Source: a virus (Duplodnaviria > Heunggongvirae > Uroviricota > Caudoviricetes). From it: a stretch of DNA of 41,251 nt. Below are positions 10,171 to 38,162 of the stretch, in pieces (the stretch's first letter is position 1; the number at the start of each line of letters is the position of its first letter). The notes beneath the pieces are model-generated. The model was not told where the DNA came from, ran no database searches, and worked only from the letters and a program-made list of their open reading frames with translations. The stretch lies in the IMG/VR virus record IMGVR_UViG_2869976549_000005; one strand, 5' to 3'. The translations under genes were made by a program, and so were the position numbers.

Positions 10171-10195
10171 AATTACCTCTCGCTTTTCTGCAATA

Positions 10196-10222: not shown

Positions 10223-10237
10223 TATGGGTTATAAAAT

Positions 10238-13689: not shown

Positions 13690-13894
13690 ACAGCCTTCCC
13701 CTGAATAAATTAACCGCCACTTGCCATTCCGTACAGAAGTCGGATATCCTTCGCCCGAAAAGCATGAAACACATTTCTGCCATGCTAAAGAGAAACCCCG
13801 GTATCAGCAGATACCGGGGTTTTCTTTCATGCCCACCGATAATCCTGTTGGTTAAAACCGGTAATGGCATAAAAATTCTGAATATCTTCACATT

Positions 13895-13922
13895 TTCACA
13901 AACTGACTGTGGCGCGTATAAT
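13895..13922 (+). promoter_or_regulatory. candidate plus-strand promoter (TTCACA - 16 bp - TATAAT) inside the I-J intergenic insertion
   Basis: Perfect -10 TATAAT at 13917-13922, -35-like TTCACA at 13895-13900. Confidence 0.3.
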
Positions 13923-13987
13923 TTCTCTGCGTTAATTTTTTTGTCGTGATATAAGAATAATTCCTTACACTTAATCTTCGTAACTCT

Positions 13988-14026
13988 CCCGCAGTTCCTG
14001 TCCGCGATCACTGCGGGATTTTTTTA
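13988..14026 (+). terminator. plus-strand intrinsic terminator (8-bp-stem hairpin + T7)
   Basis: CCCGCAGT...ACTGCGGG followed by ATTTTTTTA; ~95 nt downstream of the candidate promoter. Confidence 0.4.
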
Positions 14027-14032
14027 TTCTTT

Positions 14033-14713
14033 TTACCCCTGCCGCCCGATAACCACGACCTTTCCGCCCCCGCCTTCATCACGGGTGCTGATGTCCTGGG
14101 ATATACGGCGGGAGCCAACCAGCATTTCCCCGTAAGGCACCGGCATCGGGTTCCCCTGGGCAATCATGTTATCCAGTGAGGAAAAGTACGTGTTCTGTCT
14201 GCCGTTATCCGTTGCGCGGTAATCCGGTGTTTTTGCCTTCGGGGCCAGCATCTGGGCCACACCGCCCAGAATCATGCTGGCTCCAAGTGAAAACAGCATC
14301 GTGGTGGCAGAAAAACCACCGGCTGCCAGGGCTGAACCCCATAACGCCATTGATGCCCCGGCAGTGAAGAAAGAGCCCACGATGGCTGCCGCCCCCAGCA
14401 CAATCTGCAGTCCACCCTTTCCGGCCCCGGCCAGTCGCGGCACAATGTGGATGACCGTTCCCTCACCCAGCTGTTCGTGAAGACGGGCGTACACCGCCTC
14501 CGGTGCCGTGTCATAACCGGCAATACGTATCTGGTACCAGCCTTCGTTCATCTGACGGCGAAAGCCCGGCATCTGCATCGACAGGGCGCGAATGGCTTCC
14601 GCTGCCGTGTTCACATACAGGCTGAGGCGGCGGCCAAATCGTTGTAAATCCCCGTGAAGGCAGATGCGTGCCAGTGGCGGTGACGCCAGACTGAATGCGT
14701 TCGTCGTTGCCAT
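14033..14713 (-). CDS. I: tail assembly protein I
   Basis: 226 aa, Gly/Ala-rich hydrophobic C-terminal half, position between K and J. Confidence 0.85.
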   Translation of the reverse strand: MATTNAFSLASPPLARICLHGDLQRFGRRLSLYVNTAAEAIRALSMQMPGFRRQMNEGWYQIRIAGYDTAPEAVYARLHEQLGEGTVIHIVPRLAGAGKGGLQIVLGAAAIVGSFFTAGASMALWGSALAAGGFSATTMLFSLGASMILGGVAQMLAPKAKTPDYRATDNGRQNTYFSSLDNMIAQGNPMPVPYGEMLVGSRRISQDISTRDEGGGGKVVVIGRQG

Positions 14714-15354
14714 TTTTCGGAATACCTCTCCCGTTTACTCAGTTGTTCAGGCAGATGGTGAAGCAGCTCACCGTTGCCGCAGTAAATGGCGGCATGGTTC
14801 GGTACCGAAGCACCAAAGCAGCACAGCAGAATATCGCCCGCCTGTGCAGAGGACAGGGGCACCCGGTAAAAGCCGGTGACCGCCATATTGTCCAGGTAAA
14901 GGTTCTGACCGTTGCGCCACCAGTCATCCTCGCGATGAAAATCCGGCATTTCAGTCCCCGCCAGATGATAAGCATCCCGGAACAGCGTGTAACAGTCCGT
15001 CACCCCGTGCTCAAAGCGCCGTCCTGTCAGATGTGGCACACAGCGGAATTTGTGAATGTCACCCCGGCAGACCAACCACCAGGGCAGTGCGCTTTTTATC
15101 TGCAACCGCCGGTCAGCCTCGCTCAGCCAGGGCAGCCCACCGGGATGACTGTGGACCAGTGCCACAATCTCCCCCTGCATCTCTGCCCGCAGCCAGTCTT
15201 CCGGTGCGATACGAAAATACGCCTCCGGCTCTGCGGAAATATTCACACAAGGGATATACCGCTCCCCCTCCGGCGTGCTTATCACGAAGCCGCACGACTC
15301 CGCAGGCGCACACCGCCGGGCATGTGCCAGAATCGCTGATTCAGTCTGTGTCAT
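14611..15354 (-). CDS. K: tail assembly protein K (NlpC/P60-type peptidase domain)
   Basis: MTQTESAILAHARRCAPAESCGFV... matches lambda K; start 15354 chosen over the longer upstream-extended ORF. Confidence 0.85.
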   Translation of the reverse strand: MTQTESAILAHARRCAPAESCGFVISTPEGERYIPCVNISAEPEAYFRIAPEDWLRAEMQGEIVALVHSHPGGLPWLSEADRRLQIKSALPWWLVCRGDIHKFRCVPHLTGRRFEHGVTDCYTLFRDAYHLAGTEMPDFHREDDWWRNGQNLYLDNMAVTGFYRVPLSSAQAGDILLCCFGASVPNHAAIYCGNGELLHHLPEQLSKRERYSEKWQRRTHSVWRHRHWHASAFTGIYNDLAAASACM

Positions 15355-15364
15355 AAACCGGGAT

Positions 15365-16063
15365 TTACTGCGAAAGTTTATTAATGGAAAGGAAACCGCC
15401 AAAATTGCCGACATTCCTGCGCAGTTCACACCCGCGCATGCACTTGCTGCATCTGTCCTTACGGATATCCGTGGTGGGGTTGTCGAACTCATCCGCCACC
15501 GCAGGACCGTTATACCCGCATTCATCTCCCCGGTAATCCCACATACAGGTGTTCGCCAGCATGATGCGACCGGGAAACAGCGCCCCGTCCGTCTCGGTCG
15601 GTGTAGCCAGCACAAACGAGGCCGTCATGGCTGTCAGCTGCGACATCTGCTCCACCACCCAGCGGTCACTCAGCTCCTGCTCCGGGTCCGCCTCCGGATT
15701 GCCCGCAACGAAATTCACCGCATCCAGAAAACGGGCATACACCCGGCGGCGGACCACCGTGGCCCCCACCAGACTCTGCAGGTCTTCCGCCATCCCGGTG
15801 ACCAGACCGAACAGATTGGACACCGTCAGCGACGGTCTGGCACTGCTGCCCCGGCCGTTCATCTCAAAGCCGCTGCCGTCAATCGGGTATGCCTCATACT
15901 TACGCCCCTGCCAGGTGACCGGCTCCCCTTTTTCATTCAGCTCATTACAGAAAAAATACCGCTCACCACCCTGTACCGTCAGGTCGATTTCCCAGAGTAC
16001 CACCCGCGGTGACTGCTCTGACTTAACCGACTCGTTCAGACTTTCTTCGCGAATATCCTGCAT
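15365..16063 (-). CDS. L: minor tail protein L
   Basis: MQDIREESLNE...FGGFLSINKLSQ, near-collinear with lambda L. Confidence 0.9.
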   Translation of the reverse strand: MQDIREESLNESVKSEQSPRVVLWEIDLTVQGGERYFFCNELNEKGEPVTWQGRKYEAYPIDGSGFEMNGRGSSARPSLTVSNLFGLVTGMAEDLQSLVGATVVRRRVYARFLDAVNFVAGNPEADPEQELSDRWVVEQMSQLTAMTASFVLATPTETDGALFPGRIMLANTCMWDYRGDECGYNGPAVADEFDNPTTDIRKDRCSKCMRGCELRRNVGNFGGFLSINKLSQ

Positions 16064-16392
16064 CAGTTCACCACCTGCTTAAACTCCGCGCTGAACTCAA
16101 CGCGCAACATCCCGACCCGCGCAGACCACCCGGCACAGGTCACCTTTATCTGCCGGTATGCATAGGGTGGCTTCCACAAAAATGCCTTCCAGCCACCGTG
16201 CTCTGCCAGGAACGCTTCCAGATGCCGGGCCTCCTCCCGGGTCACGGAAAGCGTCACCCTGTATGTTTTCAGGTCAGCATTCAGCCCTGCCGCCATACGC
16301 TGTGAGTACCCGTCACCAAAACGCACTTCACGCACCGATGGCTGCGAGTTCACCTCCATATCCGGCTTCACTTTCCAGCGAAAGGTTTTCAT
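16063..16392 (-). CDS. M: minor tail protein M
   Basis: 109 aa, position and sequence like lambda M. Confidence 0.85.
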   Translation of the reverse strand: MKTFRWKVKPDMEVNSQPSVREVRFGDGYSQRMAAGLNADLKTYRVTLSVTREEARHLEAFLAEHGGWKAFLWKPPYAYRQIKVTCAGWSARVGMLRVEFSAEFKQVVN

Positions 16393-18962
16393 CCACCGCT
16401 CCCTGATAACATACCGCCATCACGCAACTGCAGCCGGAGTTCATCCTGTGCCCCCTTGCGGGCCATCTCATACACCGCTTTCATCAGCTGCGGCCCTGCC
16501 CGCCCGTTGGGGCCGTCGTTCTGAATCACCACGTGATTGTTCTGATTAAAATTAATGCCTTCCGCCCGCCGCATCTGCGCCGGACTTCCGGCACCGCCGA
16601 CATAACCACCTTCCGCATAGCCCCGCATCAGGCGGTACAGATTGCCGACACCAATCCGGCTGGTCGCCTCCTTCGTGAAGACAAACTCCCCGCGATGAAC
16701 AATCCCCGCAGGTTCATATTTACCCCCCGTCCCCGTAAATCCCCCGGTCGCGAAATGGAAGTTCGCCGCCGCAGCCTGAATGGCCGTCCCCGTGGAGGCA
16801 GACGCACCACCACCGAAAGCACCGCCAATGGCGCTGCCGATACTCCCGACTATCCCCACCATCGCCTGCTTCAGAAAAATCTCTGTCAGCATGGACAGCA
16901 CAGAACGGGTGAAACCACGCCAGTTCTGTTCGCTGCCGATCAGCATCGCTGCCATATTCTGTGCAATACCGTCAAAGGTCTGCGTGGCCGCGTTTTTAAC
17001 CTGCGAAAAACTGTCCGTCGCACTTTCCGCCCACTCGCCCCAGCCGGACTTCATCCCGGCCATCCAGCTTCCACGAAGCTGCTCCTCCGCAGACCAGGTG
17101 TTCTTCAGTGCAGATGTGGCCTTCGCCAGCGCAGCCGGATTATCACCGTACACCTCACGAAGGCGCTGCTCTTCCGACTCCCGCTGCGCCTGACGGTCGG
17201 TGAGTCCGCGGGCTTTTGCGCTGATTGCCGCCTGCTTCGCGCTCTGCTGCTGTTCAAACCGCGCCGCCTGCTGTGCCAGCTCATTCAGCCGTTTCTGGTG
17301 TTCAATCTTGTCGCCCAGCTCAGCCAGCTGGCGTTTGTACTCCAGCGTTTCTTTCTCATGGGCCAGCAGGGATTTTTCCTGCTCAGATAACTGCCGTTTC
17401 GTGGCGGCCTCTTTCAGGACCACATACTGATTTTCCGCTTTCCATAAATCACGGCGCTGCTGGCTGATTTTTTCATTCGCACCGCTGTGCTTCTCCAGCG
17501 TCCTGAGCTCAGTTTCAAGCGCCAGCAGGGCTGCATGCGCCTGGTCTTCCTGGCGCTCACCGGCAGACACCTTCACACCGGACGGCTTTTTCTGCGTCGA
17601 CTCATAATCCTTTTTTGCCGACGCCATCAGCGTGTTGTAATCCGCCTGCAGGATTTTCCCGTCTTTCAGGGCCTTATTCAGCTCTTCCTGCCGGGCGGTA
17701 TATTTCTCCAGTGGCGTCAGCAGGCGCTCATACGCCTTCTGCGCCTCTCCGGTATACTTCAGCTGTGACGACTCACGCTCAGCCCTGTCCCTTGCCGCCA
17801 GTTCACCGGCTTTTTCCATATCCGACTGCAGCGTTGCCGCTGCCAGACCCAGACGGGCATTTTCCCGGTCATCCCATGCGCCCTGAAGGTTGGCCCGGAA
17901 AGAGGAGGTTTTACCGCGGCGCTGGCTCCGACTCTGGTACCACTGCCATTTTTTATCCGCCTCATCAAATGCCTTCTGCGCACTGGCGAGCATATCCGCT
18001 GAGGATTCCGGACGACCGATATCCAGAATGGCATCCCACATCGATTTGAATGCCTTCCCTGTTTTATCCGCCCAGGTCTCCAGTGTTCCCATGTTTTCTT
18101 TCAGGCGACGGGTCTGCTCATCAAAGCCTTTCGTGGCGATATCGTTCGCCGCCTGCAATGCCCCGGCCTCGTCTCCGGAACGCTGCAGCTGTGCAACATA
18201 CGCAATCTGCTCTGCCGTCACGTTACGGAACTGGCGCGCCATCGCCATCAGTCCCGACGTCGGGTCAGTGGTCAGCTTCCCGAAGGCTTCAGCGACTTTA
18301 TCCACCTCCACACCGGATGCAGACGCAAAACGCGCGACACTCTGGTTGATGGCATCAAACTGTTCACCACCACGCACACCGGCATTCACCAGGGCTGCCA
18401 GTGACTCTCTCGCCTGGTTAAACGTCAGCCCTGCTGCCTGCCCGGCTCTTGAGAGAGTCAGCATACGATCGGCAGTCAGTCCGGACTGATTACCGGAAAG
18501 AACCAGGGTTTTATTAAACGCTGAAAGCGTGGAATCTCCCTGGTACCAGGCGTACACCAGTGCACCTGTCGCCACCGCCAGCGAGGTGACCCCGACCATC
18601 GGCAGGGTGATCGCATCGGCAAGCCCCCTGAACATGGGGATCATCCCGCCGAAGGAGTCCTTCACCTGACCGCCCTGTTGCAGCAGGATCAGCCAGGGAT
18701 TCTGACCACCGGCAAGCTGCGTGGCGATATCCGTAAACTGTGCGGGCAGGGTTCGCATGGCCGCTTTATACTGCCCGACGGAAATCCCGGCTTTTTGTGC
18801 AGCCAGCGCCTGGCGGCTCAGGCCCTGTTCAACAGCACTGGCGGTTTTTCTGGCGTCGGTATCCAGACCTGAAAAATGACGCCTTACCCGGCTCATCTGC
18901 TCATCGAAACGGACAGCATCCAGACTCAGGTCAATAACAAGATCACCAACCGGCTGGGACAT
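16389..18962 (-). CDS. H: tail tape measure protein H
   Basis: 857 aa, coiled-coil-rich middle, Gly-rich C-terminal region; position as lambda H. Confidence 0.85.
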   Translation of the reverse strand: MSQPVGDLVIDLSLDAVRFDEQMSRVRRHFSGLDTDARKTASAVEQGLSRQALAAQKAGISVGQYKAAMRTLPAQFTDIATQLAGGQNPWLILLQQGGQVKDSFGGMIPMFRGLADAITLPMVGVTSLAVATGALVYAWYQGDSTLSAFNKTLVLSGNQSGLTADRMLTLSRAGQAAGLTFNQARESLAALVNAGVRGGEQFDAINQSVARFASASGVEVDKVAEAFGKLTTDPTSGLMAMARQFRNVTAEQIAYVAQLQRSGDEAGALQAANDIATKGFDEQTRRLKENMGTLETWADKTGKAFKSMWDAILDIGRPESSADMLASAQKAFDEADKKWQWYQSRSQRRGKTSSFRANLQGAWDDRENARLGLAAATLQSDMEKAGELAARDRAERESSQLKYTGEAQKAYERLLTPLEKYTARQEELNKALKDGKILQADYNTLMASAKKDYESTQKKPSGVKVSAGERQEDQAHAALLALETELRTLEKHSGANEKISQQRRDLWKAENQYVVLKEAATKRQLSEQEKSLLAHEKETLEYKRQLAELGDKIEHQKRLNELAQQAARFEQQQSAKQAAISAKARGLTDRQAQRESEEQRLREVYGDNPAALAKATSALKNTWSAEEQLRGSWMAGMKSGWGEWAESATDSFSQVKNAATQTFDGIAQNMAAMLIGSEQNWRGFTRSVLSMLTEIFLKQAMVGIVGSIGSAIGGAFGGGASASTGTAIQAAAANFHFATGGFTGTGGKYEPAGIVHRGEFVFTKEATSRIGVGNLYRLMRGYAEGGYVGGAGSPAQMRRAEGINFNQNNHVVIQNDGPNGRAGPQLMKAVYEMARKGAQDELRLQLRDGGMLSGSGG

Positions 18963-19814
18963 ATCTCACACCTCCCGGAATCCCCGCTGAAGCCATCATT
19001 AATGCGGCATCATCCACCATGACATCCGCCACATCCGCAGACGATAAAATATCGCGCCCTCCGTCCCCACCGAACCGGACGCCTCCGGCAAGTCCTGCCG
19101 CTTTCTGCATCAGCATTTTGTCCTCATCCGGCCTCTCCACCTGCTCTTCCTCATGCCGGGGGACAAGCAGACTGAAATCAGAGGGATGCATATCCGGATC
19201 GCAAAAAAACAGGCTGAGTACAGCGTACGTCAGCCCGGAAAAATGCATATCCAGCTGGGTATCCTGAAAATAATGCGTGCGGTAAAAACGGTGCCAGTCG
19301 GCATATTCGGTGGATGTCATCCCGGCAAGCATGGCGCGCCAGTCGGGTCTCCCCATCTCACGCGCCAGTCTGAGGGCAAAGTTCAGCTCGCCGTCGAAGA
19401 CTTTCCCGCAGAAAAATCATCATCAATCAGCGTGTTATTTTTCGCCACTTCAGTAATATCAGTATCCGGACGAACAGCTTCGATCATCCCGGACAGGCAC
19501 AACACCACGTCTTCCGCCCGGGCAATGGCATCGGCAGGCCAGGTGGTGAGCACTTCCTGCTCTATCTTCATCACGGCCTCATTCATTGACGGTGACTGCG
19601 TTTTCTGTGGATGGTTATGCCACAGGGACATCGCCACCAGAAACGCGCCGGTTCTGACGAGATCTTCCACGCTTACCTGCAGGTTGCCGCTGGATTCTGC
19701 CTGTTCTGCACGCCGTTTCAGGAGGGCAAGATGCTCGATACGCTGCAGCGCAGACAATTCGGAAAGCGTGACAGACACACCGTTATATTCAAATTGTTCT
19801 GTTTTCAGAAACAT
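18943..19814 (-). CDS. T: tail assembly chaperone G-T fusion produced by programmed -1 frameshift
   Basis: Slippery heptamer G GGA AAG (plus-strand CTTTCCC 19401-19407) 16 nt before the G stop; T frame open 18943-19356. Confidence 0.75.
19383..19814 (-). CDS. G: tail assembly chaperone G
   Basis: 143 aa, MFLKTEQFEYNGVSVTLSELSALQRIEHL... Confidence 0.85.
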   Translation of the reverse strand: MFLKTEQFEYNGVSVTLSELSALQRIEHLALLKRRAEQAESSGNLQVSVEDLVRTGAFLVAMSLWHNHPQKTQSPSMNEAVMKIEQEVLTTWPADAIARAEDVVLCLSGMIEAVRPDTDITEVAKNNTLIDDDFSAGKSSTAS

Positions 19815-19827
19815 GTATTACCTCCGT

Positions 19828-20580
19828 TTACCCTGCAGCGCCCGCTTCAGTAACGGTGACTTCAGCCACTGCGGCGAACTGACCATTTCCGCTCACCACA
19901 GGGATCTGCACCTTACCTGTCGCCACGCCGTTTACCGTAATTGTCATATCTTTCACACTAATGGTGGCTTTCGACGGATCGGCGGAAACCGCTCTGAACG
20001 TCTTGTCGGTTGCACTTTCCGGCTCAAAAGAAACCGTCAGGGTGGTTGTTTTCCCTTTTGCCACCGTACCGGATGTCGGCGTCACCTTAATCGCACTGAC
20101 CGGCGTAATTTTGCTGCGTTCTTCCGCTACAGAAGGTTTACCCACGTTAGTGACTTTCACCGTGCGGGTGATCACTTCTTTCGCCGTCACGGCCTTACCG
20201 ATACTGCTGACCCAGCCACGAAACACATCCACCGTGCCATTCGGAAAACGGATTTTATAGGCCCGGACATCGCCGCTTTCAAACCAGCCTATAAGCCCTT
20301 TCTGGCCTTCCTCTCCCGGTTTCCAGGCCAGCGTAAAACTGGTATCACCTGCAGATTTCTGCCCCTGCCCGGTCGCGCTCCAGTCCGCGTCTTCATCATC
20401 CAGGTAGTTATCATCATAGGATTCAGCCGTCATCTCGCCCGGCGTCAGATCCTTCACCTTAGCCAGTCGCTGCCAGTCATCGTCTGACAACGGGTTTGCA
20501 TAAGCATCAGCCTTGCCGTTGTAAACCCACAGAGTGGTACCGGCACCTTTTACCGGCTCCAGGGGATTTGGTGTTGCCAT
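19828..20580 (-). CDS. V: major tail protein V (with C-terminal Ig-like domain)
   Basis: [22 protein letters not shown]... close to lambda V. Confidence 0.9.
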
Positions 20581-20587
20581 ATCGTCC

Positions 20588-20983
20588 TCACATCTCGTAT
20601 GTAATGGAATAAGTCAGATCCGCAGAGCTCCATAACGCCATATCGTCATCACGACGATACTCATAGCCCTGCGTAACCATCGTGGTAATCAGTCCTGCCA
20701 GTGCAGGGATCGCAGTCATCGCCGGATAAATCCGGCTTTCCATCCACTGATCGAGCTCCGAATCAGGTACCTGTGCCGGTAAAAACACCTCAATATGCAG
20801 TGTGGCCCGCCAGGTATCTGCATCCAGCTCTTCACCGGTATACTCTGCATCCGTCAGATAAACCGCGATCGCAGGAAAATCCTCTTCGTCAAAAACAACG
20901 GGGCGACCATCAAACAGCGTCGCCCCGTGTTCATGCTGCTCGAGTGCATCCAGCACTGCGGCACGAATGTCAGTGTGTTTCAT
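20588..20983 (-). CDS. U: minor tail protein U (tail terminator)
   Basis: 131 aa, position between V and Z. Confidence 0.85.
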
Positions 20984-21555
20984 CGTTTTATCGCAATCCT
21001 CAGTTGTTGTTTCAGCGCGTATGCCAGTTCTTTAGGCAGGCGTTCACGCCGGATACGGTCAACATTCTCATCAAATGCCTGTTTCAGTGGGGCCGCCATC
21101 GGGATTTTCACCACCTGAATGGGAAGGCGATTACGCTTTTTCCTTCCCTTGTCGTCATTGCCCTCCTCATATCTGGCCTGGGGAAGACGTTGCATAACAT
21201 GCCAGCGCCCATTATTTAATCGCTGGATAAATGCCCGCTGATAACGATGCTGACCGGCTTTGAGTATGCTGTTCGGACGACGCCCCAGCATTCTGATCCC
21301 CAGCTTAATCACAGGGAGATCACCGCGGTTAACGATAATTCTGGCATTCGGATTTCTGACCGTCGCCCGTTTCAGTCTGGACCGTTCCTTTACCAGTTTC
21401 CGTCTCACCCTGGTTTCCCGGGCAACCTGTGACGAAGACTGATTAATCGCCGTTGTGGCCACGCGGTTAATGGTCATTGCAGAAGCAGCCGGAATGGCGT
21501 TTTTACGAACCCGGCTCAGATTGTCAATCGCCTGATCAAGCCCTTTTATCGCCAT
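20980..21555 (-). CDS. Z: tail completion protein Z
   Basis: 191 aa MAIKGLDQAIDNLSRV... Confidence 0.8.
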   Translation of the reverse strand: MAIKGLDQAIDNLSRVRKNAIPAASAMTINRVATTAINQSSSQVARETRVRRKLVKERSRLKRATVRNPNARIIVNRGDLPVIKLGIRMLGRRPNSILKAGQHRYQRAFIQRLNNGRWHVMQRLPQARYEEGNDDKGRKKRNRLPIQVVKIPMAAPLKQAFDENVDRIRRERLPKELAYALKQQLRIAIKR

Positions 21556-21644
21556 AATTCACCCTGCGTTTATCGTCGCCGGTTAACTGCGGGTGGTTGC
21601 CCACGGTTGAGCCAGAGATAACAGCTGCCCCCGTCATCCGGAGA
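21556..21644 (-). pseudogene. probable 3' remnant of the gene upstream of Z (FII-like), cut by IS21
   Basis: Open frame ends at 21556 immediately before Z; upstream part replaced by the IS21 end. Confidence 0.3.
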
Positions 21645-21745
21645 TGTCAGCGCCAGTGATATAAGACGGTAATTCGCCATTTGGATTGTCCGCTCCACCC
21701 AACATGTTGTTTCCTTAAGGTTCTCACACCAGAAAGGACATCAAC

Positions 21746-23298
<1,553 letters not shown>

Positions 23299-23357
23299 TA
23301 GCCTGAGTTTAACGGACACTCCTTCCTGAAATAGAATGGCATCAGAAGGAGCTAATA

Positions 23358-23660
23358 ATGAGCAGAAAAACCCAACGTTACTCTAAAGAGTTCAAAGCCG
23401 AAGCTGTCAGAACGGTTCTTGAAAATCAACTTTCGATCAGTGAAGGCGCTTCCCGATTATCTCTTCCTGAAGGCACTTTAGGACAATGGGTTACCGCCGC
23501 CAGAAAAGGGCTCGGTACTCCTGGTTCCCGCACGGTGGCTGAACTGGAATCTGAAATTCTGCAACTGCGTAAGGCGTTAAATGAAGCTCGCCTTGAGCGA
23601 GATATATTAAAAAAAGCAACAGCGTATTTTGCACAGGAGTCGCTGAAAAATACGCGTTAA
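23358..23660 (+). CDS. IS600 OrfA
   Basis: 100 aa, identical family to 5749-6051. Confidence 0.9.
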   Translation: MSRKTQRYSKEFKAEAVRTVLENQLSISEGASRLSLPEGTLGQWVTAARKGLGTPGSRTVAELESEILQLRKALNEARLERDILKKATAYFAQESLKNTR

Positions 23661-23695
23661 TCGAACAATGGCGACAACAATTTCCCATTGAAGCG

Positions 23696-24514
23696 ATGTG
23701 TCAGGTATTTGGTGTATCCAGGAGCGGTTATTACAACTGGGTACAGCATGAACCCTCAGACAGAAAACAAAGTGATGAGCGGCTAAAACTGGAGATTAAG
23801 GTGGCACATATCCGCACTCGCGAAACATATGGAACCCGGCGGCTCCAGACGGAGCTGGCAGAGAATGGCATCATCGTTGGTCGTGACCGACTGGCACGTC
23901 TTCGTAAGGAGCTAAGGCTACGCTGTAAGCAGAAACGCAAGTTCAGAGCGACTACGAACTCGAACCACAATCTGCCAGTTGCGCCAAATCTGCTGAACCA
24001 GACGTTCGCTCCTACAGCACCAAATCAGGTCTGGGTGGCGGACCTGACGTATGTTGCCACACAGGAGGGATGGTTGTACCTCGCTGGCATCAAAGATGTT
24101 TATACGTGCGAAATTGTCGGCTACGCCATGGGAGAGCGCATGACAAAAGAGCTGACAGGTAAAGCCCTGTTTATGGCGCTCAGGAGCCAGCGCCCACCTG
24201 CCGGGCTAATCCACCACTCTGATCGAGGTTCACAGTACTGCGCATACGATTACCGGGTCATACAGGAGCAGTCTGGTCTGAAAACATCAATGTCGCGTAA
24301 AGGTAACTGTTACGACAACGCTCCGATGGAAAGCTTCTGGGGAACGCTGAAAAATGAGAGCCTGAGCCACTATCGTTTTAATAACCGGGATGAAGCCATC
24401 TCAGTAATACGGGAATACATTGAGATTTTCTACAATCGTCAGCGTCGTCACTCTCGTCTGGGGAATATCTCCCCGGCAGCCTTCAGGGAAAAATATCATC
24501 AGATGGCTGCTTAA
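23696..24514 (+). CDS. IS600 OrfB
   Basis: 272 aa. Confidence 0.9.
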   Translation: MCQVFGVSRSGYYNWVQHEPSDRKQSDERLKLEIKVAHIRTRETYGTRRLQTELAENGIIVGRDRLARLRKELRLRCKQKRKFRATTNSNHNLPVAPNLLNQTFAPTAPNQVWVADLTYVATQEGWLYLAGIKDVYTCEIVGYAMGERMTKELTGKALFMALRSQRPPAGLIHHSDRGSQYCAYDYRVIQEQSGLKTSMSRKGNCYDNAPMESFWGTLKNESLSHYRFNNRDEAISVIREYIEIFYNRQRRHSRLGNISPAAFREKYHQMAA

Positions 24515-24714
24515 AAAAAGAACAAATGGTAGTGTCCGCTATTGCCAGTACACCTCAGTTAGTCAGCTTCTTATCGAACTTGAGCTGAAGGATCTTAAAA
24601 CAAGTTTCCATAGTGCTCCTGGATTTTCTCTTTTTGGACATTGACGTCTCCACTGGTTTAAACACGGCAATGGAGACTGTGGTGAAAAGAGTTAATTCCC
24701 GGAGTGACTGGCGA

Positions 24715-24847
24715 ATTCCAATCAATGATCGGAAGTATGCCAAATCGTGATCGATTGTGATGCCAAACTGTGATCGGAGATGGATGCCAAATCATGATCG
24801 ATTCGAATGCCAAACTGCGATCGATTCAGATGCCATTTTGCAATCAG
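24715..24847. repeat. tandem array of about six 22-24-bp direct repeats, each with a GATC site (consensus ATGCCAAAYNRYGATCGATT)
   Basis: Contiguous units at 24737, 24760, 24784, 24807 plus degenerate copies at 24715 and 24830; no spacers. Confidence 0.7.
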
Positions 24848-24947
24848 CGCCAGAACAGCAGCTGACAGGCCGTATTTGATTTTTGCGCTCATGGATATTT
24901 ATCAGGATGCTACCAATGAAAGATACTGGAAAGCCAACTGCAAAAAG

Positions 24948-25262
24948 CTAACAACCCGTAATCGAGTTATCAGAACTGTTAATTTTTATGGTATACCGCG
25001 CCTCTGAACAGGGGCGCGTTTCTGGCAACAGCTCGTCCCCTTCACATAACCCGGCAGCAACATCCAGGAAGACCTGTCTGATGCTCCTTCTGGCTGCTGC
25101 CTCATAAAACTCCAGCGCGGCACCTTCAACACGGTCCAGCGAGATGTCCAGGTCAAAAATTTCACCGTCAAAGCGTTTTTTGTCCCGTAACGCTAAAGTT
25201 ACCGTAACTTTATTCTCAAAATTGCGGATCCCTTTCACAATCAGTTCATAGTTTTGAGTCAT
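24948..25262 (-). pseudogene. DUF1327-like (YdfO/YbcV-type) prophage protein, probably C-terminally corrupted
   Basis: N-terminus MTQNYELIVKGIRNFENKVTVTLALRDKKRFDGEIFDLD... recalled as the YdfO/YbcV family; C-terminal 25 aa read through a hairpin/terminator. Confidence 0.35.
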
Positions 25263-25266
25263 TGAA

Positions 25267-25482
25267 TTACTCTCCCCGTGCAGCCTTACGACGGTCCTCT
25301 CTGATTTTGAAATACAGGTTAGTCAGATATGTCAGCAGCCCAAACAGCAGACTCCCCAGCACGCCTATTGCCGCCCACTGAGACGGGGAAACCCTGTCCA
25401 GCAACTGCAGGAACCAGTAGCCCGTTCCCACCGCTGACGTGGTGTATGACACACCTGTTGTGATTTTTTCCATCTGGTACAT
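25267..25482 (-). CDS. phage-21-type class II holin (pinholin S21) with dual start (71-aa and 68-aa forms)
   Basis: [13 protein letters not shown]...[50 protein letters not shown]; two TMDs; Met1 and Met4 dual-start pattern. Confidence 0.75.
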
Positions 25483-25632
25483 ACCCCGTCTCCCGTTATC
25501 CGGAAGCTGACAACAATAAAAAAAGCCACCAGTTAAGTACTGATGGCTCTGATAACTCATGCAGGCATCTCAGACGACCCACTGACACTACCGGTGAGTT
25601 TAACGATACCTTCCATTTGGCTGGCTCACTTT

Positions 25633-27486
25633 TTATGATGATGCCGGTGCATTTATCTCCAGCACCAGACTTTCTATCTCAACGCCATACGCTGCATTTT
25701 TGGTAATATCCGTCAGCGTCAGCGCATTCAGCCCCAGTGTCAGACTGTCTTTTATGACCTGGAATGCCGGGCCAGCCACTCCATTCAGTTTCGGAGTAAC
25801 CGTGGCACTGCCGGCGGTGAACACCAGCTCCAGCGTCAGCCAGTCGTTACTGTAATTCCCGAACTCGCCCAACTTTGTGTTTCCTGCTTTCTTGTGATGC
25901 ATCAGATTCAGTTTGCCGTCTGTGGTCTGGGTGAAGAACGACATCAGGAACGGGTTACCAGTCCCGGTCATCGCCACGACGTCAGGTAACGCTACATCGG
26001 TATACAGATAAATTCCCAGACCGAACTGGTTGTTGGTCAGTGCGCCTGACAGTCGAAACTTACAGCTCAGTCTGCCACCCCGTGTCAGCAGGGAGACTGC
26101 GTCATCCACCGGGCGCGTCAGGGACCAGGCTTTATTGCTCTGCTTGGTGATCTTAAATACACCATCTGACAACTGAACTCCGCCATTCTTAATGCTCCAG
26201 CCCTGCGCAGCAGCGTCTCCGGCTGTCGGCAACAGGGAGATTGTGCGTATGGATGCATCTTCAGACGGCCCCGATGGCGTGTCGCCGCCGGGCGAGGGTT
26301 TGATTTCCGGTGCCTTACCACTAATGAAGGCTAAGGTGCGACCGGCTACGTTCAGAATAGCAGTTGCCATACGATCGGGAATAATGCCACGACGCGCCCA
26401 TGAGCTGAAATGCGTCGGGCGATTTGATGATACCCAGTTTTTGTTCGTTCGGGATGCCGAACCGTAATAACCAGACCCGGCAATATCAGGATCTTCTGAC
26501 GGGTTGTTTGTCGGTGTATTAACTCCGCTACCATCGGTCATAAAGGGAACAAAATAAATCTGCTGGGATTCTTTACCTTTATATGCACCATATACCACTT
26601 CATATTGCGTACCGTGTTCTTGTTTCCACGCGTATGTCGTGTCGCCACAAATCCAGGGGACTGATGCCGGACTTCCACCGTGACACTGCGCCGCCAGCCC
26701 GGCAAGGTCAGCACGGAACTGCTGTACCATTGCAAGAAATGCTGCTGGCTGCTGGGCGTAACTGGCATTCGTCATATCGAATTCCCCCTGCATCCAGCAT
26801 ATCGCCAGCAAAACGTTTTTCGGGTTTTTCTGCAATGCTGCCTTCGTGCGGAAAAGCAGATCCTGATATAACGGCTTACCCACTCCCCAGCGAGCCGAAT
26901 CCTGACTGGCCCCCGTGGACTCGCTGAATGTCCCCTCCGTGCCCTGGGTGAATGCCGAACCACCACGACAGCATGGTACCAGCAGGATCCCCGCATTATT
27001 AGGGATATACGGAAGCAGTTTTTTGGCAATATGTAAGCCCTGTCCGACACAGCCGTACTGCCCTTTGCTCAGGTCAGCCCGGGGATGGTTAATCGTACTC
27101 ATATCCTGAACATCATGCAGACAATGGTCAGCAGGAATGATGTCGTTAAATACGCATACTTCACCACCGGGAGTCACTGTGTTACGACGGGCCAGTTGCT
27201 TAATGCGCGGATGGGGCGCATCGTATGAATCCGGAAGCGGAAGACCTTCACCGTAAGCCATGGCATTGGATTGCCCGGCCAGTACGATGACGTAGTACCA
27301 CTCCGGCTCAGTTGCACCACTGACGACCACATCACCTTCTGCTGCAATCGCCTGCATCAGGGTATAAGGGGTTATGGCCACCGGACTACCAAACGGCTGC
27401 CAGCCCTCCTTCAGTTTTTGTGTCAGTCGTTTCGCAAGGTCTGACGGCGATGCCGCCCTGACCACGTCATAGTGTTTAAATGCCAT
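25633..27486 (-). CDS. nanS: prophage NanS-p-like sialate O-acetylesterase (SGNH hydrolase with N-terminal DUF1737-like region), 617 aa
   Basis: GQSNAMAY esterase motif; size and position (upstream of the holin, downstream of the tRNA cluster) as in Stx-converting phages. Confidence 0.6.
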   Translation of the reverse strand: MAFKHYDVVRAASPSDLAKRLTQKLKEGWQPFGSPVAITPYTLMQAIAAEGDVVVSGATEPEWYYVIVLAGQSNAMAYGEGLPLPDSYDAPHPRIKQLARRNTVTPGGEVCVFNDIIPADHCLHDVQDMSTINHPRADLSKGQYGCVGQGLHIAKKLLPYIPNNAGILLVPCCRGGSAFTQGTEGTFSESTGASQDSARWGVGKPLYQDLLFRTKAALQKNPKNVLLAICWMQGEFDMTNASYAQQPAAFLAMVQQFRADLAGLAAQCHGGSPASVPWICGDTTYAWKQEHGTQYEVVYGAYKGKESQQIYFVPFMTDGSGVNTPTNNPSEDPDIAGSGYYGSASRTNKNWVSSNRPTHFSSWARRGIIPDRMATAILNVAGRTLAFISGKAPEIKPSPGGDTPSGPSEDASIRTISLLPTAGDAAAQGWSIKNGGVQLSDGVFKITKQSNKAWSLTRPVDDAVSLLTRGGRLSCKFRLSGALTNNQFGLGIYLYTDVALPDVVAMTGTGNPFLMSFFTQTTDGKLNLMHHKKAGNTKLGEFGNYSNDWLTLELVFTAGSATVTPKLNGVAGPAFQVIKDSLTLGLNALTLTDITKNAAYGVEIESLVLEINAPASS

Positions 27487-27721
27487 GAATCCTCCCGGCC
27501 GGGATAATATTGTGAGTAAAATAAGGAGCGGGCTGAAGTCCGGAAGTTACAGGACAATGGCAGAAGAGAGACGACAGCCCGCAATTCGAAAAAGACCGCG
27601 CAGTTGCGCAGAGTGATTACTATGGGGTATTATTCGCCAGCTGAAATATTACTTCACGTTTTATTGTTTATTCCTTGCCGCCCGCGTCTCCCAGCGCGGG
27701 CTTTTTTTGCCCACAAGAAAA

Positions 27722-27950
27722 CCCCTCCGGAGAGGGGCTAAAGCCGCGTATCTGTATCATCATGCACATGGTGCCGGGTGCCTCCCGGTGAGTTCAGCCC
27801 GGTGCCACTAAACCCGCGTCATTCTCGTTTTGATAATCAGAGATTATACCGTCACCAGTCGCCCCTCCGCTCAGGGGGATTCACCATGCGAAATTTTTTT
27901 AACAAATGCCCAGTCTGACAGGCAACTGTCAACTTACTGAATTGTGAGCA
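27722..27950 (-). repeat. structured non-coding element, paralogue A
   Basis: Shares hairpin blocks with 29475-29685: CCCCTCCGGAGAGGGG, TGCCGGGTGCCTCCCGGTGA, CGCCCCTCCGC-CAGGGGGATTCACCATGC, AACTGTCAAC, CTGAATTGTGAG. Confidence 0.6.
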
Positions 27951-28084
27951 ACATAGCATTTAACGGGGAACCTGTTTTCTGCAGTAAAAAGGCCCACCGG
28001 AGCGGATGGGCCTGGAAGGATGAGGTAGCCTGAGTTTAACGGACACTCCTTCCTGAAATAGAATGGCATCAGAAGGAGCTAATA

Positions 28085-28387
28085 ATGAGCAGAAAAACCC
28101 AACGTTACTCTAAAGAGTTCAAAGCCGAAGCTGTCAGAACGGTTCTTGAAAATCAACTTTCGATCAGTGAAGGCGCTTCCCGATTATCTCTTCCTGAAGG
28201 CACTTTAGGACAATGGGTTACCGCCGCCAGAAAAGGGCTCGGTACTCCTGGTTCCCGCACGGTGGCTGAACTGGAATCTGAAATTCTGCAACTGCGTAAG
28301 GCGTTAAATGAAGCTCGCCTTGAGCGAGATATATTAAAAAAAGCAACAGCGTATTTTGCACAGGAGTCGCTGAAAAATACGCGTTAA
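28085..28387 (+). CDS. IS600 OrfA
   Basis: 100 aa. Confidence 0.9.
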   Translation: MSRKTQRYSKEFKAEAVRTVLENQLSISEGASRLSLPEGTLGQWVTAARKGLGTPGSRTVAELESEILQLRKALNEARLERDILKKATAYFAQESLKNTR

Positions 28388-28422
28388 TCGAACAATGGCG
28401 ACAACAATTTCCCATTGAAGCG

Positions 28423-29241
28423 ATGTGTCAGGTATTTGGTGTATCCAGGAGCGGTTATTACAACTGGGTACAGCATGAACCCTCAGACAGAAAACAAAGT
28501 GATGAGCGGCTAAAACTGGAGATTAAGGTGGCACATATCCGCACTCGCGAAACATATGGAACCCGGCGGCTCCAGACGGAGCTGGCAGAGAATGGCATCA
28601 TCGTTGGTCGTGACCGACTGGCACGTCTTCGTAAGGAGCTAAGGCTACGCTGTAAGCAGAAACGCAAGTTCAGAGCGACTACGAACTCGAACCACAATCT
28701 GCCAGTTGCGCCAAATCTGCTGAACCAGACGTTCGCTCCTACAGCACCAAATCAGGTCTGGGTGGCGGACCTGACGTATGTTGCCACACAGGAGGGATGG
28801 TTGTACCTCGCTGGCATCAAAGATGTTTATACGTGCGAAATTGTCGGCTACGCCATGGGAGAGCGCATGACAAAAGAGCTGACAGGTAAAGCCCTGTTTA
28901 TGGCGCTCAGGAGCCAGCGCCCACCTGCCGGGCTAATCCACCACTCTGATCGAGGTTCACAGTACTGCGCATACGATTACCGGGTCATACAGGAGCAGTC
29001 TGGTCTGAAAACATCAATGTCGCGTAAAGGTAACTGTTACGACAACGCTCCGATGGAAAGCTTCTGGGGAACGCTGAAAAATGAGAGCCTGAGCCACTAT
29101 CGTTTTAATAACCGGGATGAAGCCATCTCAGTAATACGGGAATACATTGAGATTTTCTACAATCGTCAGCGTCGTCACTCTCGTCTGGGGAATATCTCCC
29201 CGGCAGCCTTCAGGGAAAAATATCATCAGATGGCTGCTTAA
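28423..29241 (+). CDS. IS600 OrfB
   Basis: 272 aa. Confidence 0.9.
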   Translation: MCQVFGVSRSGYYNWVQHEPSDRKQSDERLKLEIKVAHIRTRETYGTRRLQTELAENGIIVGRDRLARLRKELRLRCKQKRKFRATTNSNHNLPVAPNLLNQTFAPTAPNQVWVADLTYVATQEGWLYLAGIKDVYTCEIVGYAMGERMTKELTGKALFMALRSQRPPAGLIHHSDRGSQYCAYDYRVIQEQSGLKTSMSRKGNCYDNAPMESFWGTLKNESLSHYRFNNRDEAISVIREYIEIFYNRQRRHSRLGNISPAAFREKYHQMAA

Positions 29242-29474
29242 AAAAAGAACAAATGGTAGTGTCCGCTATTGCCAGTACACCTCAGGATAGCGGTCATGTG
29301 ATGCCGGTTTCCCGGTAACTCAGCACCGGTATCTGAGTCAACGTTTTCTCTACTGGGTCATTTCCGATACGCCCTGCCTGCTGACAGGCTTTCATCACAT
29401 CTGAAAATATAGCACCCTGACTGATACTGTAGTACCTAAGGTTCCAGAAACTGTGATGTATCCGGCACAGAAAA

Positions 29475-29685
29475 GCCCCTCCGGAGAGGGCTGGAGAGTG
29501 GCGCTATGTGCCATTGCATGATGCCGGGTGCCTCCCGGTGAATTCAGTACCAGCACCTGAATCCGCGATTATCCCATATACCTACTCGCTGATTGCCCCT
29601 CCGCACAGGGGGATTCACCATGCCAGTTTCTTTTAACAAACTCCCCGCAAAACAGACAACTGTCAACCGTCTGAATTGTGAGACA
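29475..29685 (-). repeat. structured non-coding element, paralogue B
   Basis: See 27722-27950; conserved hairpins with compensatory loop differences. Confidence 0.6.
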
Positions 29686-29843: not shown

Positions 29844-31181
29844 CATAAGCGCTAACTTAAGGGTTGTGGTATTACGCCTGATATGATTTAACGTGCCGAT
29901 GAATTACTCTCACGATAACTGGTCAGCAATTCTGGCCCATATTGGTAAGCCCGAAGAACTGGATACTTCGGCACGTAATGCCGGGGCTCTAACCCGCCGC
30001 CGCGAAATTCGTGATGCTGCAACTCTGCTACGTCTGGGGCTGGCTTACGGCCCCGGGGGGATGTCATTACGTGAAGTCACTGCATGGGCTCAGCTCCATG
30101 ACGTTGCAACATTATCTGACGTGGCTCTCCTGAAGCGGCTGCGGAATGCCGCCGACTGGTTTGGCATACTTGCCGCACAAACACTTGCTGTACGCGCCGC
30201 AGTTACGGGTTGTACAAGCGGAAAGAGATTGCGTCTTGTCGATGGAACAGCAATCAGTGCGCCCGGGGGCGGCAGCGCTGAATGGCGACTACATATGGGA
30301 TATGATCCTCATACCTGTCAGTTCACTGATTTTGAGCTAACCGACAGCAGAGACGCTGAACGGCTGGACCGATTTGCGCAAACGGCAGACGAGATACGCA
30401 TTGCTGACCGGGGATTCGGTTCGCGTCCCGAATGTATCCGCTCACTTGCTTTTGGAGAAGCTGATTATATCGTCCGGGTTCACTGGCGAGGATTGCGCTG
30501 GTTAACTGCAGAAGGAATGCGCTTTGACATGATGGGTTTTCTGCGCGGGCTGGATTGCGGTAAGAACGGTGAAACCACTGTAATGATAGGCAATTCAGGT
30601 AATAAAAAAGCCGGAGCTCCCTTTCCGGCACGTCTCATTGCCGTATCACTTCCTCCCGAAAAAGCATTAATCAGTAAAACCCGACTGCTCAGCGAGAATC
30701 GTCGAAAAGGACGAGTAGTTCAGGCGGAAACGCTGGAAGCAGCGGGCCATGTGCTATTGCTAACATCATTACCGGAAGATGAATATTCAGCAGAGCAAGT
30801 GGCTGACTGTTACCGTCTGCGATGGCAAATTGAACTGGCTTTTAAGCGGCTCAAAAGTTTGCTGCACCTGGATGCTTTGCGTGCAAAGGAACCTGAACTC
30901 GCGAAAGCGTGGATATTTGCTAATCTACTCGCCGCATTTTTAATTGACGACATAATCCAGCCATCGCTGGATTTCCCCCCAGAAGTGCCGGATCCGAAAA
31001 GAAGAACTAACTCGTTGTGGAGAATAACAAAAATGGTCATCTGGAGCTTACAGGTGGCCATTCGTGGGACAGTATCCCTGACAGCCTACAAAACGCAATT
31101 GAAGAACGCGAGGCATCGTCTTAACGAGGCACCGAGGCGTCGCATTCTTCAGATGGTTCAACCCTTAAGTTAGCGCTTATG
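29844..31181 (+). mobile_element. IS186 (IS4 family), 1338 bp, inserted at a GGGG-N7-CCCC site with ~12-bp target duplication
   Basis: Termini CATAAGCGCTAACTTAAGGGTTG...CAACCCTTAAGTTAGCGCTTATG; GGGACTTGAACCC duplicated on both sides. Confidence 0.9.
29893..31173 (+). CDS. IS186 transposase
   Basis: MNYSHDNWSAILAHIGKPEELDTSARNAG... 426-aa ORF. Confidence 0.9.
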   Translation: MPMNYSHDNWSAILAHIGKPEELDTSARNAGALTRRREIRDAATLLRLGLAYGPGGMSLREVTAWAQLHDVATLSDVALLKRLRNAADWFGILAAQTLAVRAAVTGCTSGKRLRLVDGTAISAPGGGSAEWRLHMGYDPHTCQFTDFELTDSRDAERLDRFAQTADEIRIADRGFGSRPECIRSLAFGEADYIVRVHWRGLRWLTAEGMRFDMMGFLRGLDCGKNGETTVMIGNSGNKKAGAPFPARLIAVSLPPEKALISKTRLLSENRRKGRVVQAETLEAAGHVLLLTSLPEDEYSAEQVADCYRLRWQIELAFKRLKSLLHLDALRAKEPELAKAWIFANLLAAFLIDDIIQPSLDFPPEVPDPKRRTNSLWRITKMVIWSLQVAIRGTVSLTAYKTQLKNARHRLNEAPRRRILQMVQPLS

Positions 31182-31251
31182 GGACTTGAACCCCGCGCAG
31201 CCAGCTTCGAAGGCTGGCGCTCTTTCCTGATGAGCTAATGGCGGTATGTGA

Positions 31252-32894: not shown

Positions 32895-32918
32895 AAAAAA
32901 CCCGCTCGGCGGCGGGTT
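32895..32918 (-). terminator. tR'-like intrinsic terminator downstream of the late promoter
   Basis: Minus-strand AACCCGCCGCCGAGCGGGTT followed by TTTTTAT. Confidence 0.65.
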
Positions 32919-32965
32919 GTAGAAACTCTTCTAACGTCAGGCATAAAACGCCCATCGTTATGACG

Positions 32966-32993
32966 AATTTACCACAGATTCCGGAAAAATCAA
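32966..32993 (-). promoter_or_regulatory. pR'-like late promoter (TTGATT - 16 bp - TAAATT) immediately after the Q-like gene
   Basis: -10 TAAATT identical to lambda pR'; sits directly 3' of the putative Q stop with tR' ~50 nt downstream. Confidence 0.55.
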
Positions 32994-32998: not shown

Positions 32999-33820
32999 TT
33001 ACCTAGTTACCTTTTTTAACTGCCGCTCAGCCCATGCTTCTTCAATATCAAACCGGGTCACCAGCGCATCATAAAATTTCTTAACTGTTTTTTCCCATGA
33101 CGCGCGTGTTATCTGGTTTGTCACCTCGCATATAGCATTAAATGCCTCCGTTGATGGTAGTCTTTCATAGCCACGACCACCACAACGCTGGCAGTCTCTG
33201 ATAACAGGCATACCACGTTTTACCGACTCTTCACGATGAATGGCGACACCACGCCCACGGCAATCCTTACAGGCGGTGGAAACCTCACCCTTTCCGCCAC
33301 ACTCCGGACAGGCAACTTTTACCACCTCCCTGACTTTTTTCCATTCTTCCCAGTAAGACGGATACACACCTTTCGTACACTTTGCCCATACCGGCGGCTT
33401 ACCATCCGGATACTGGATCTTGTTTGTAAAAACCTCGCTTTCAATAAATTTTTTTCCGTGACAGCAGGGGCACTGTTTTTTGCTCGCCGCGCTACGGGCA
33501 TAATCTTCAAACGCATACGAAGCCATAATACGCATCACTGCCGGTTTTATTTCTGCCGGGAGTTTTCTTAACGCCGCCACGCGATCACACCGACTGAGTG
33601 CATATTCTGTCAGCAATTCTGTTGCCCGCTCTCTGTCATTCATACTAATGCCCATTTTCCCAAGGAACGCAGAAACCCCCATCTCAGCCCGATTCTGTGT
33701 CATGCCCTGCGCGGCCATCACATCAGTGATACTCAGCGCATCTTTCGACGTTGAGGCCGATGCATCAGTCAGGCCGGGGGATTTTGGGGAGTAGTATTTC
33801 GGTAAATCTTCCAGTTTCAT
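32999..33820 (-). CDS. putative late antiterminator Q (273 aa) with four CxxCxGxG zinc-finger motifs
   Basis: Assigned mainly by position (between RusA and pR'/tR'); motifs CPCCHGKK, CPECGGKG, CKDCRGRG, CQRCGGRG. Confidence 0.5.
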   Translation of the reverse strand: MKLEDLPKYYSPKSPGLTDASASTSKDALSITDVMAAQGMTQNRAEMGVSAFLGKMGISMNDRERATELLTEYALSRCDRVAALRKLPAEIKPAVMRIMASYAFEDYARSAASKKQCPCCHGKKFIESEVFTNKIQYPDGKPPVWAKCTKGVYPSYWEEWKKVREVVKVACPECGGKGEVSTACKDCRGRGVAIHREESVKRGMPVIRDCQRCGGRGYERLPSTEAFNAICEVTNQITRASWEKTVKKFYDALVTRFDIEEAWAERQLKKVTR

Positions 33821-35833: not shown

Positions 35834-35989
35834 TTACTCCTCAGGTTCGTAAGCTGTGAAGACAGCGACCTCCGTCTGGCCGGTTCGAATTCGTACCTCG
35901 CAGAGGTCTTTCCTCGTTACCAGTGCCGTCACTATGACGGTTAAACAGATGACGATCAGGGCGATTAACATCGCCTTTTGCTGCTTCAT
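35834..35989 (-). CDS. hok: Hok/Gef-family type I toxin (51 aa; RelF/HokD-like)
   Basis: MKQQKAMLIALIVICLTVIVTALVTRKDLCEVRIRTGQTEVAVFTAYEPEE; AAGGAG RBS; in-frame upstream extension to 36046. Confidence 0.85.
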   Translation of the reverse strand: MKQQKAMLIALIVICLTVIVTALVTRKDLCEVRIRTGQTEVAVFTAYEPEE

Positions 35990-36200
35990 AGCCTGCTTCT
36001 CCTTGCCTTTCGGCACGTAAGAGGCTAACCTAGATTTGCCGTTCATAGATTGAGCCTCAGATTAATGTTAAGCGTCTTGCCGGACGCGTAATGTTAACTG
36101 GGGCTTTTCTCTATCTGCCTTTTGGTGTTCATGCCTGAGACAGATAGCCTCAAGCACCCGCTGCAATTCTACTTAACTCTCCTTTTCCCGCAAACCGTTT

Positions 36201-36913: not shown

Positions 36914-36921
36914 TGAAGTGG

Positions 36922-38090
<1,169 letters not shown>

Positions 38091-38162
38091 TGGAGCACCT
38101 GTGTTGTTCTGAGGTGAGCATATCACCTCTGTTCAGGTGGCCAAATTCAGTGTGCCACTTCA

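Follow-up and report, generated by a model that had tools for sequence, protein, structure and literature searches.

A phage-21-type holin gene without a working endolysin gene in a probably IS-dismantled lambdoid prophage of Shigella sonnei

S-type pinholins form heptameric pinholes of about 2 nm that collapse the proton motive force. In the DNA analysed here, a stretch of 41,251 nucleotides assigned to the Caudoviricetes (IMG/VR record IMGVR_UViG_2869976549_000005, hereafter the window), a gene for a predicted holin of this type is followed neither by a functional SAR endolysin gene nor by Rz/Rz1 genes, which raises the question of what became of the remaining lysis cassette and in what state the holin gene was left behind. 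A first-pass annotation of the same DNA had answered that the cassette was deleted directly behind the holin gene and that a pinholin under late control was left without its lysin. We consider it highly probable (about 0.9) that we are dealing with the late region of a defective prophage of Shigella sonnei, lambdoid and Stx-phage-like, which was dismantled by IS elements, and that the holin gene and its neighbour ydfR are untouched passengers of this process.

The holin gene and its downstream neighbour

25267 to 25482, minus strand: holin gene S, 71 aa, class II or phage 21 type (PF04971 and PHROG holin families)
24948 to 25262, minus strand: ydfR (DUF1327, PF07041), full length, 104 aa, no assigned function

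The assignment of ORF 25267-25482 to the phage-21-like class II holins was borne out by a Pfam search, in which the protein matched PF04971 ('Bacteriophage P21 holin S') with 112.5 bits against a cut-off of 26 (E 9e-33). The match covers profile positions 1-63 of 64, begins at residue 5 of the holin and is, as a sequence similarity, far beyond chance. By hydropathy scan, the protein is predicted to have the two-segment topology of class II holins, with a weakly hydrophobic, SAR-like first segment rich in Gly, Ser, Thr and Ala (about residues 8-28, Kyte-Doolittle mean about 0.1-0.7), a strongly hydrophobic second segment (about residues 35-58, mean 1.1-2.1) and a short, charged and basic C-terminus. 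The same layout of a weak first segment, a strong second segment and a basic tail is described for pinholins in a review (PMC9636201). The window holin is 100% identical to WP_000284510.1 of the E. coli 042 prophage as well as to the holins of Shigella phage POCJ13 and other viable Stx phages, and 74 phage records contain a holin at least 99% identical to it. One S. sonnei sequence (UGZB01000001.1) carries a change from AGT to TGT at the equivalent of window position 25353, which results in the exchange S44C in the second membrane segment.

The N-terminus of the holin reads M-Y-Q-M, with ATG codons at positions 1 (25482-25480) and 4 (25473-25471) of the stretch ATG TAC CAG ATG (25482-25471) and a GGAG motif 7 nt 5' of the first ATG. 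Two in-frame starts three codons apart, previously described as a Met1/Met4 dual start, are therefore present in the sequence. The holin allele of phage mEp460 starts with MKSMDK, which we also take to be the N-terminus of S21, the mEp460 allele being its support in sequence. In S21-71, the antiholin behaviour is owed to an additional positively charged N-terminal residue (PMC9636201). Because the MYQ extension of the window holin (MYQMEK) contains no Lys or Arg and does not add such a charge, the dual start represents a resemblance in sequence rather than a demonstrated antiholin/holin pair: both ATGs stand, but the charge expected of an antiholin is absent. An sdi-like RNA structure was also sought around the dual start, and the fold obtained there was no better than those of shuffled sequences (z = -1.0).

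The ydfR gene starts 4 nt past the holin stop codon. It had been taken for a DUF1327-like fragment and not for a SAR endolysin gene, of which the family and the lack of lysin character were confirmed, but not the fragmentary state: the product matches PF07041 over profile positions 1-90 of 93 (Pfam, E 5e-39) and phrog_2735 over positions 2-105 of 105, and it is identical in 103 of 104 residues (99%), over its whole length, to YdfR (104 aa) of the viable phage mEp460. The order of genes is holin, YdfR, lysozyme and Rz-like spanin in mEp460, and esterase, holin, YdfR, lysozyme and lysis protein in the E. coli 042 prophage. Because YdfR lies between holin and lysozyme in both of them, we regard it as a regular occupant of this slot and not as a scar. 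The first-pass annotation had staked its reading on the 104-aa ORF having no lysozyme or peptidase homology, and sequence searches of Pfam, PHROG and the PDB indeed gave no such similarity. A homologue of YdfR of any kind was sought by sequence in the PDB and none was found, and its single-sequence AlphaFold model (pLDDT 51.7) was too poor for a fold search. E. coli 042 shows the reverse of the S. sonnei state, with ydfR frameshifted by a run of seven A in place of six (fetched locus 4439-4754) and with R and Rz intact. Two S. sonnei loci carry a synonymous ydfR change at the equivalent of window position 25067.

The interrupted endolysin gene and the missing block

24839 to 24892, minus strand: R', 5' stub of the endolysin gene, first about 18 codons (MSAKIKYGLSAAVLALIA), catalytic domain gone
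24722 to 24892, minus strand: chimeric ORF of 56 aa from the ORF list, R codons 1-18 with read-through into the ISSso4 end
24558 to 24842, minus strand: left-end stub of ISSso4 (IS21 family), terminal repeat region and first 18 istA codons
23294 to 24557, plus strand: IS600 copy B, at the deletion junction, without 3-bp target duplication (alignment of four IS600 copies)
21644 to 23293, plus strand: IS21 proper, left end, complete istA of 390 aa, istB cut to 128 aa by IS600
21556 to 21643, minus strand: remnant of an FII-like head-tail joining gene, last about 75 nt and the spacer before Z; far edge of the deletion
20980 to 21555, minus strand: tail gene Z (Pfam Minor_tail_Z), first gene of the retained lambda-like tail module

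The window is 99.4% collinear with the DNA of the 042 prophage from position 28021 down to 24840, over a stretch which takes in the esterase gene, S, ydfR and a 55-bp spacer and ends after 53 nt of R, the lysozyme gene. Using the 177-aa lysozyme of 042 as a tblastn query against the 41-kb window, we obtained a match for aa 1-18 only (MSAKIKYGLSAAVLALIA, 100% identity, 24892-24839), and the same stub is 100% identical to the 5' end of the mEp460 endolysin gene. The 042 Rz gave nothing in the window (best E 4.4), and the tblastn searches with both proteins revealed an intact endolysin or spanin nowhere in the 41 kb. The claim that the window contains no endolysin or spanin genes is therefore correct for intact genes, except that the first 18 codons of R have survived. 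Because the full-length 042 lysozyme is homologous to the PDB lysozymes 3hde, 3hdf and 4zpu (RrrD), the lost partner of the holin is the expected SAR-type endolysin; 3hde and 3hdf are presumably R21 itself. With both the muralytic and the spanin step missing, the cassette alone cannot lyse the cell. Another ORF of the window (4305-4838) shares the length of R (177 aa) and was considered as the missing lysozyme; it was rejected, since it gave no tblastn match with R and since its own sequence and the Caudo_TAP matches next to it identify its product as a tail-fibre assembly protein.

ISSso4 sits inside R after codon 18. In annotated ISSso4 copies from E. coli genomes, the left end is 100% identical to the segment 24558-24842, in which GATCNNNNTTTGGCAT occurs five times in direct orientation at a spacing of about 23 bp, ahead of the 18 istA codons. 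The segment has the organisation of an IS21-family end, consisting of a TG terminal inverted repeat, subterminal direct repeats and then istA, while the remainder of the element is absent, and a complete ISSso4 copy carries comparable repeats at its right end. A GATC repeat array, IS600 and a truncated IS21 had been recognised downstream of the 104-aa gene before; all three are there, but the array is the left end of ISSso4 and not a free-standing element. Between 24715 and 24842 there are five Dam sites (GATC), each located in a 16-nt direct repeat, compared with a window mean of 1.7 GATC per kb, and their position in the ISSso4 repeats hints at a methylation-sensitive binding of the transposase. 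We also considered IS21 (21644-23293) and the ISSso4 stub as the two halves of one inverted element, and rejected this because of their different IstA N-termini and annotated families.

The ISSso4 stub meets IS600 at 24557/24558. This copy B is flanked by GAC on one side and GTT on the other, and the flanks of copies A and C are matching (AAT/AAT and GGA/GGA, respectively). Because copy B is present without a target duplication, its site is a junction that arose by recombination or deletion and not by simple insertion. On the far side of IS600, the segment 21644-23293 is 100% identical to annotated IS21 copies, with Pfam matches to the rve / Mu-transposase C-terminal domain and to positions 3-121 of 238 of IstB_IS21. 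Next to copy B (23293/23294), 170 bp of istB are gone in comparison with S. sonnei ATCC 29930 and two other genomes (positions 11600-11771 of their fetched loci), and IstB has 128 aa in the window versus 184 aa in those three, which suggests a continued erosion at the IS600 edge.

Collinearity with the 042 prophage picks up again at position 11560 of the fetched 042 locus, inside the gene at 11281-11634. IS21 lies directly against the 3' end of the FII-like gene, where the collinearity resumes. Compared with 042, about 10.5 kb are therefore absent, with codon 19 of R at one edge and the 3' end of the FII-like gene at the other; since the tail module (Z to J) shares only about 91% identity with its 042 counterpart, this figure is an estimate from a relative and not from the ancestor. 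Using 042 as the reference, the loss covers R beyond codon 18, Rz and two small genes, the two terminase subunits and the head-tail connector, as well as portal, protease, decoration and major capsid protein, FI and most of FII. The retained lambda-like tail module consists of Z, U, V, G, T, H, M, L and onward (Pfam). The earlier account of the extent of the loss was right on the remainder of R and on Rz, but the loss goes beyond the lysis cassette and includes terminase, portal, protease and capsid genes. Within the tail region, the tail-tip gene J is split into two ORFs of 547 and 513 aa (10238-13416, minus strand), compared with a single J of 1159 aa in 042, and has probably become a pseudogene through a frameshift or a nonsense mutation. 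At 3131-3337 and 4305-5430, two tail-fibre assembly genes in inverted arrangement and a 68-aa resolvase/invertase fragment next to them look like a decayed invertible tail-fibre switch.

The upstream late region and the proposed history

32999 to 33820, minus strand: late antiterminator gene Q, 273 aa, intact (PF03589, E 1.6e-53; PHROG 'anti-termination protein Q-like')
32899 to 32993, minus strand: predicted pR'-like promoter and tR'-like hairpin, just 3' of Q
29845 to 31180, plus strand: IS421-type insertion (IS4 family) in the phage tRNA cluster, strain-specific
28022 to 29284, plus strand: IS600 copy C, in the late operon 5' of the esterase gene, simple insertion with GGA duplication
25633 to 27486, minus strand: NanS-p-like sialate O-acetylesterase gene upstream of the holin gene, 617 aa (Pfam DUF1737, SASA and DUF6645)
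25522 to 25550, minus strand: putative terminator-like hairpin in the gap between esterase and holin genes, 12-bp stem followed by TTTTATTGTT (consensus scan)

The putative pR'-like promoter was recognised by eye (TTGATT, 16 nt, TGgTAAATT), and the putative tR'-like hairpin with its T-run at 32918-32899 by a terminator scan. Between Q and the holin gene, a DNA methylase gene and phage tRNAs are also kept, one of the latter being cut by the IS421-type element, and the 042 homologue of the esterase is annotated as a SASA family esterase. Two copies of the STnc100 sRNA (27709-27918 and 29463-29652, minus strand, 161 and 124 bits) flank the IS600 copy at 28022-29284. The nin-like region contains a hok/gef-type toxin ORF with a sok antitoxin RNA (35984-36159, minus strand, Rfam RF01794, 112 bits) as its neighbour. 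Genes for a repressor and for N, O and P are missing from the window, where only IS911, IS600 and IS1 follow past the nin-like genes and hok/sok.

The statement that the holin gene is under late control is correct insofar as Q, the pR'-like promoter and the tR'-like hairpin remain, but two IS elements now separate this region from the holin gene and the window contains no immunity or early region. While the hardware of Q and pR' has survived, the lack of an early region implies that the cascade which produces Q is gone, as far as the window reaches. Transcription of the holin gene from pR' depends on antitermination by Q and has to pass terminator-like hairpins, and the early region by which Q is normally switched on is not part of the window. 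Expression of the gene is therefore probably very low, and behind these terminators it is probably silent under ordinary conditions. Given that Q, the pR'-like promoter and the holin gene are intact, some expression may occur, for example after trans-activation by the Q of another phage. If expressed, the holin would be expected to depolarise the inner membrane via small pinholes and to cause death without lysis, in analogy to S21-68 (PMC9636201).

These data also bear on a reading close to the first-pass annotation, according to which the cassette was cleanly deleted right after the holin gene, the 104-aa ORF is a scar fragment and the pinholin remains ready to act under late control. It is in line with the lack of an intact R or Rz in the window, the IS elements downstream and the presence of Q and the pR'-like region. 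We consider it unlikely, since YdfR is full length and native to its position, the collinearity with intact prophages runs through ydfR and 53 nt into R, the breakpoint is the ISSso4 insertion in R, neither an early nor an immunity region occurs in the window and the late operon carries two IS insertions. What can be retained from it is an IS-bounded deletion that left no working lysin or spanin, but the break is located inside R after codon 18 and not behind the holin gene.

For the IS-dismantled prophage which we favour, the original order of the late region would have been Q, pR', methylase, tRNAs, esterase, S, ydfR, R, Rz/Rz1, terminase, head and tail genes. First, ISSso4 would have inserted into R after codon 18 and, independently, IS21 into the FII-like gene upstream of Z. 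An IS600-mediated recombination or deletion would then have removed everything between them, amounting to about 10.5 kb. As the likeliest route, we infer that one IS600 was present in each of the two IS21-family elements and that the two direct copies recombined, while an adjacent deletion by a single IS600 would be equally workable and would create the same junction. The end product would be R' :: ISSso4 stub :: IS600 :: IS21 stub :: Z. We propose this sequence of insertions and deletion, which a single end-state is not enough to reconstruct.

The junction in other genomes and comparison with known systems

The exact 56-aa chimeric ORF created by the fusion of R' with ISSso4 was found in 196 index blocks, 75 of which represent contigs over 1 Mb. 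We fetched the loci of eight complete genomes for comparison, and around the junction each of them shared at least 99.9% identity with the window. The 2.9-kb block comprising esterase, S, ydfR, R' and ISSso4 was identical in five of the eight loci and differed at two sites in the other three. Two of the junction-carrying loci belong to strains named in published papers, namely CP026802.1 (S. sonnei ATCC 29930) and CP109775.1 (S. sonnei CIP 106347), and the assignment of the window to S. sonnei is based on these two together with the chimeric ORF. Among 5,426 complete E. coli genomes, no junction-spanning match was present among the matches listed; only two places in E. coli covered at least 80% of the junction query, starting 28-34 nt into it with about 95% identity, and both are annotated with SymE or IS91 and istA and not with a lysozyme gene. 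An exact-match scan of genome contigs for the R'/ISSso4 junction gave 0 matches, and S. sonnei is perhaps not listed as a separate species there.

The eight loci also differ in their IS elements. Five of them lack the region corresponding to window positions 6949-23293, which contains the tail genes, by recombination of the IS600 copies at 5685-6948 and 23294-24557. This second deletion between two IS600 copies indicates that the proposed mechanism operates at the same locus. IS600 copy C is missing from three of the eight loci (including UGZB01000001.1), and the IS421-type insertion, at whose edge a partial tRNA is located (31178-31238), from all eight. Plasmid matches to the IS421-type query also covered its 15-bp flanks, which hints at either a target-site preference or slightly mis-set boundaries of the element. 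The IS911 copy at 36914-38162 is strain-specific as well and absent from the same three loci that lack IS600 copy C. [quoted passage not shown]

The conservation of the holin gene might also be read as domestication, with the orphan holin, perhaps together with YdfR, being selected for a benefit to the host, for instance as a non-lytic suicide or abortive-infection switch or as the partner of an endolysin encoded elsewhere. The intact state of the holin gene, ydfR, Q and the pR'-like region despite at least six IS events around them would agree with this, as would the 2.9-kb block that is identical or differs at two sites only across the eight genomes. However, because of the youth of S. sonnei and its divergence of about 0.023% (PMC7373316), neither the sequence identity nor the intactness of the holin gene says anything about selection. 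Moreover, one strain already carries a non-synonymous holin change (S44C), and the pattern is what is expected of a random IS bombardment of a dead prophage, which makes a domesticated holin very improbable. An equally slight chance is given to the more specific proposal that the Q - pR' - holin (- YdfR) arm acts as a suicide switch, trans-activated too early by the Q of a superinfecting or co-resident lambdoid phage and aborting the infection by a collapse of the membrane potential without lysis; if this were true, the missing endolysin and spanin would be a feature and not only decay. A mis-join of repeats during assembly can practically be dismissed, as the R'/ISSso4/IS600/IS21 junction does consist wholly of repeated elements, which are classic sites of mis-assembly, but the identical chimeric ORF with its flanks recurs in many independently assembled complete chromosomes of over 4.5 Mb, which argues for a real structure.

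The reading as an IS-dismantled prophage has several consequences. For the annotation, the 104-aa gene becomes a complete ydfR, the 5' stub of the SAR endolysin gene is seen to survive, the GATC repeat turns into the end of ISSso4, and the lysis and head genes were lost with a deletion that is bounded by IS600 and common to every S. sonnei locus inspected. The locus provides a datable example of stepwise prophage decay, and the successive deletions between IS600 copies are possibly useful as lineage markers. Only if it is transcribed could the intact pinholin gene without a lysin harm the cell or be of use to it.

Compared to the S21-R21-Rz/Rz1 cassette of phage 21, the window shares a PF04971 holin that is laid out in two segments and has ATG as its first and fourth codon, and the lost R, as represented by the 042 version, is homologous to 3hde/3hdf and has an N-terminal hydrophobic segment rich in Gly, Ala and Ser. 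Unlike phage 21, the holin has an MYQ extension without the charge of S21-71, ydfR separates S from R, only the first 18 codons of R remain, and Rz/Rz1 are missing. The closest arrangement is present in the E. coli 042 prophage and in mEp460, which show the same order of S, ydfR and R, and the 5' block from esterase to R is 99.4-99.9% identical to that of 042; in contrast to the window, a complete 177-aa lysozyme and Rz are kept there. The cassette essQ-ydfR-rrrQ-rzpQ of the Qin prophage of E. coli K-12 presumably follows the same S-ydfR-R order and likewise keeps a complete lysozyme and Rz. Stx phages of the 933W/Sakai type and POCJ13 resemble the window in carrying a NanS-p-type esterase gene 5' of the holin gene and in the layout of Q, tRNAs and late operon. 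They differ in being complete and inducible, whereas the window contains no stx genes between the tRNAs and the esterase gene. POCJ13 encodes an identical holin protein, but its R follows directly after S without ydfR.

Finally, the locus corresponds to the IS-driven degradation described for Shigella (Hawkey et al. 2020, PMC7373316), both in the elements involved (IS600, IS911, IS4-type, IS1, IS21 and ISSso4) and in the strain-to-strain polymorphism of insertions and deletions, including deletions between IS copies, although a prophage and not a metabolic gene is affected here. It is of a known kind, a textbook case of IS-driven prophage decay in Shigella with nothing different in kind.
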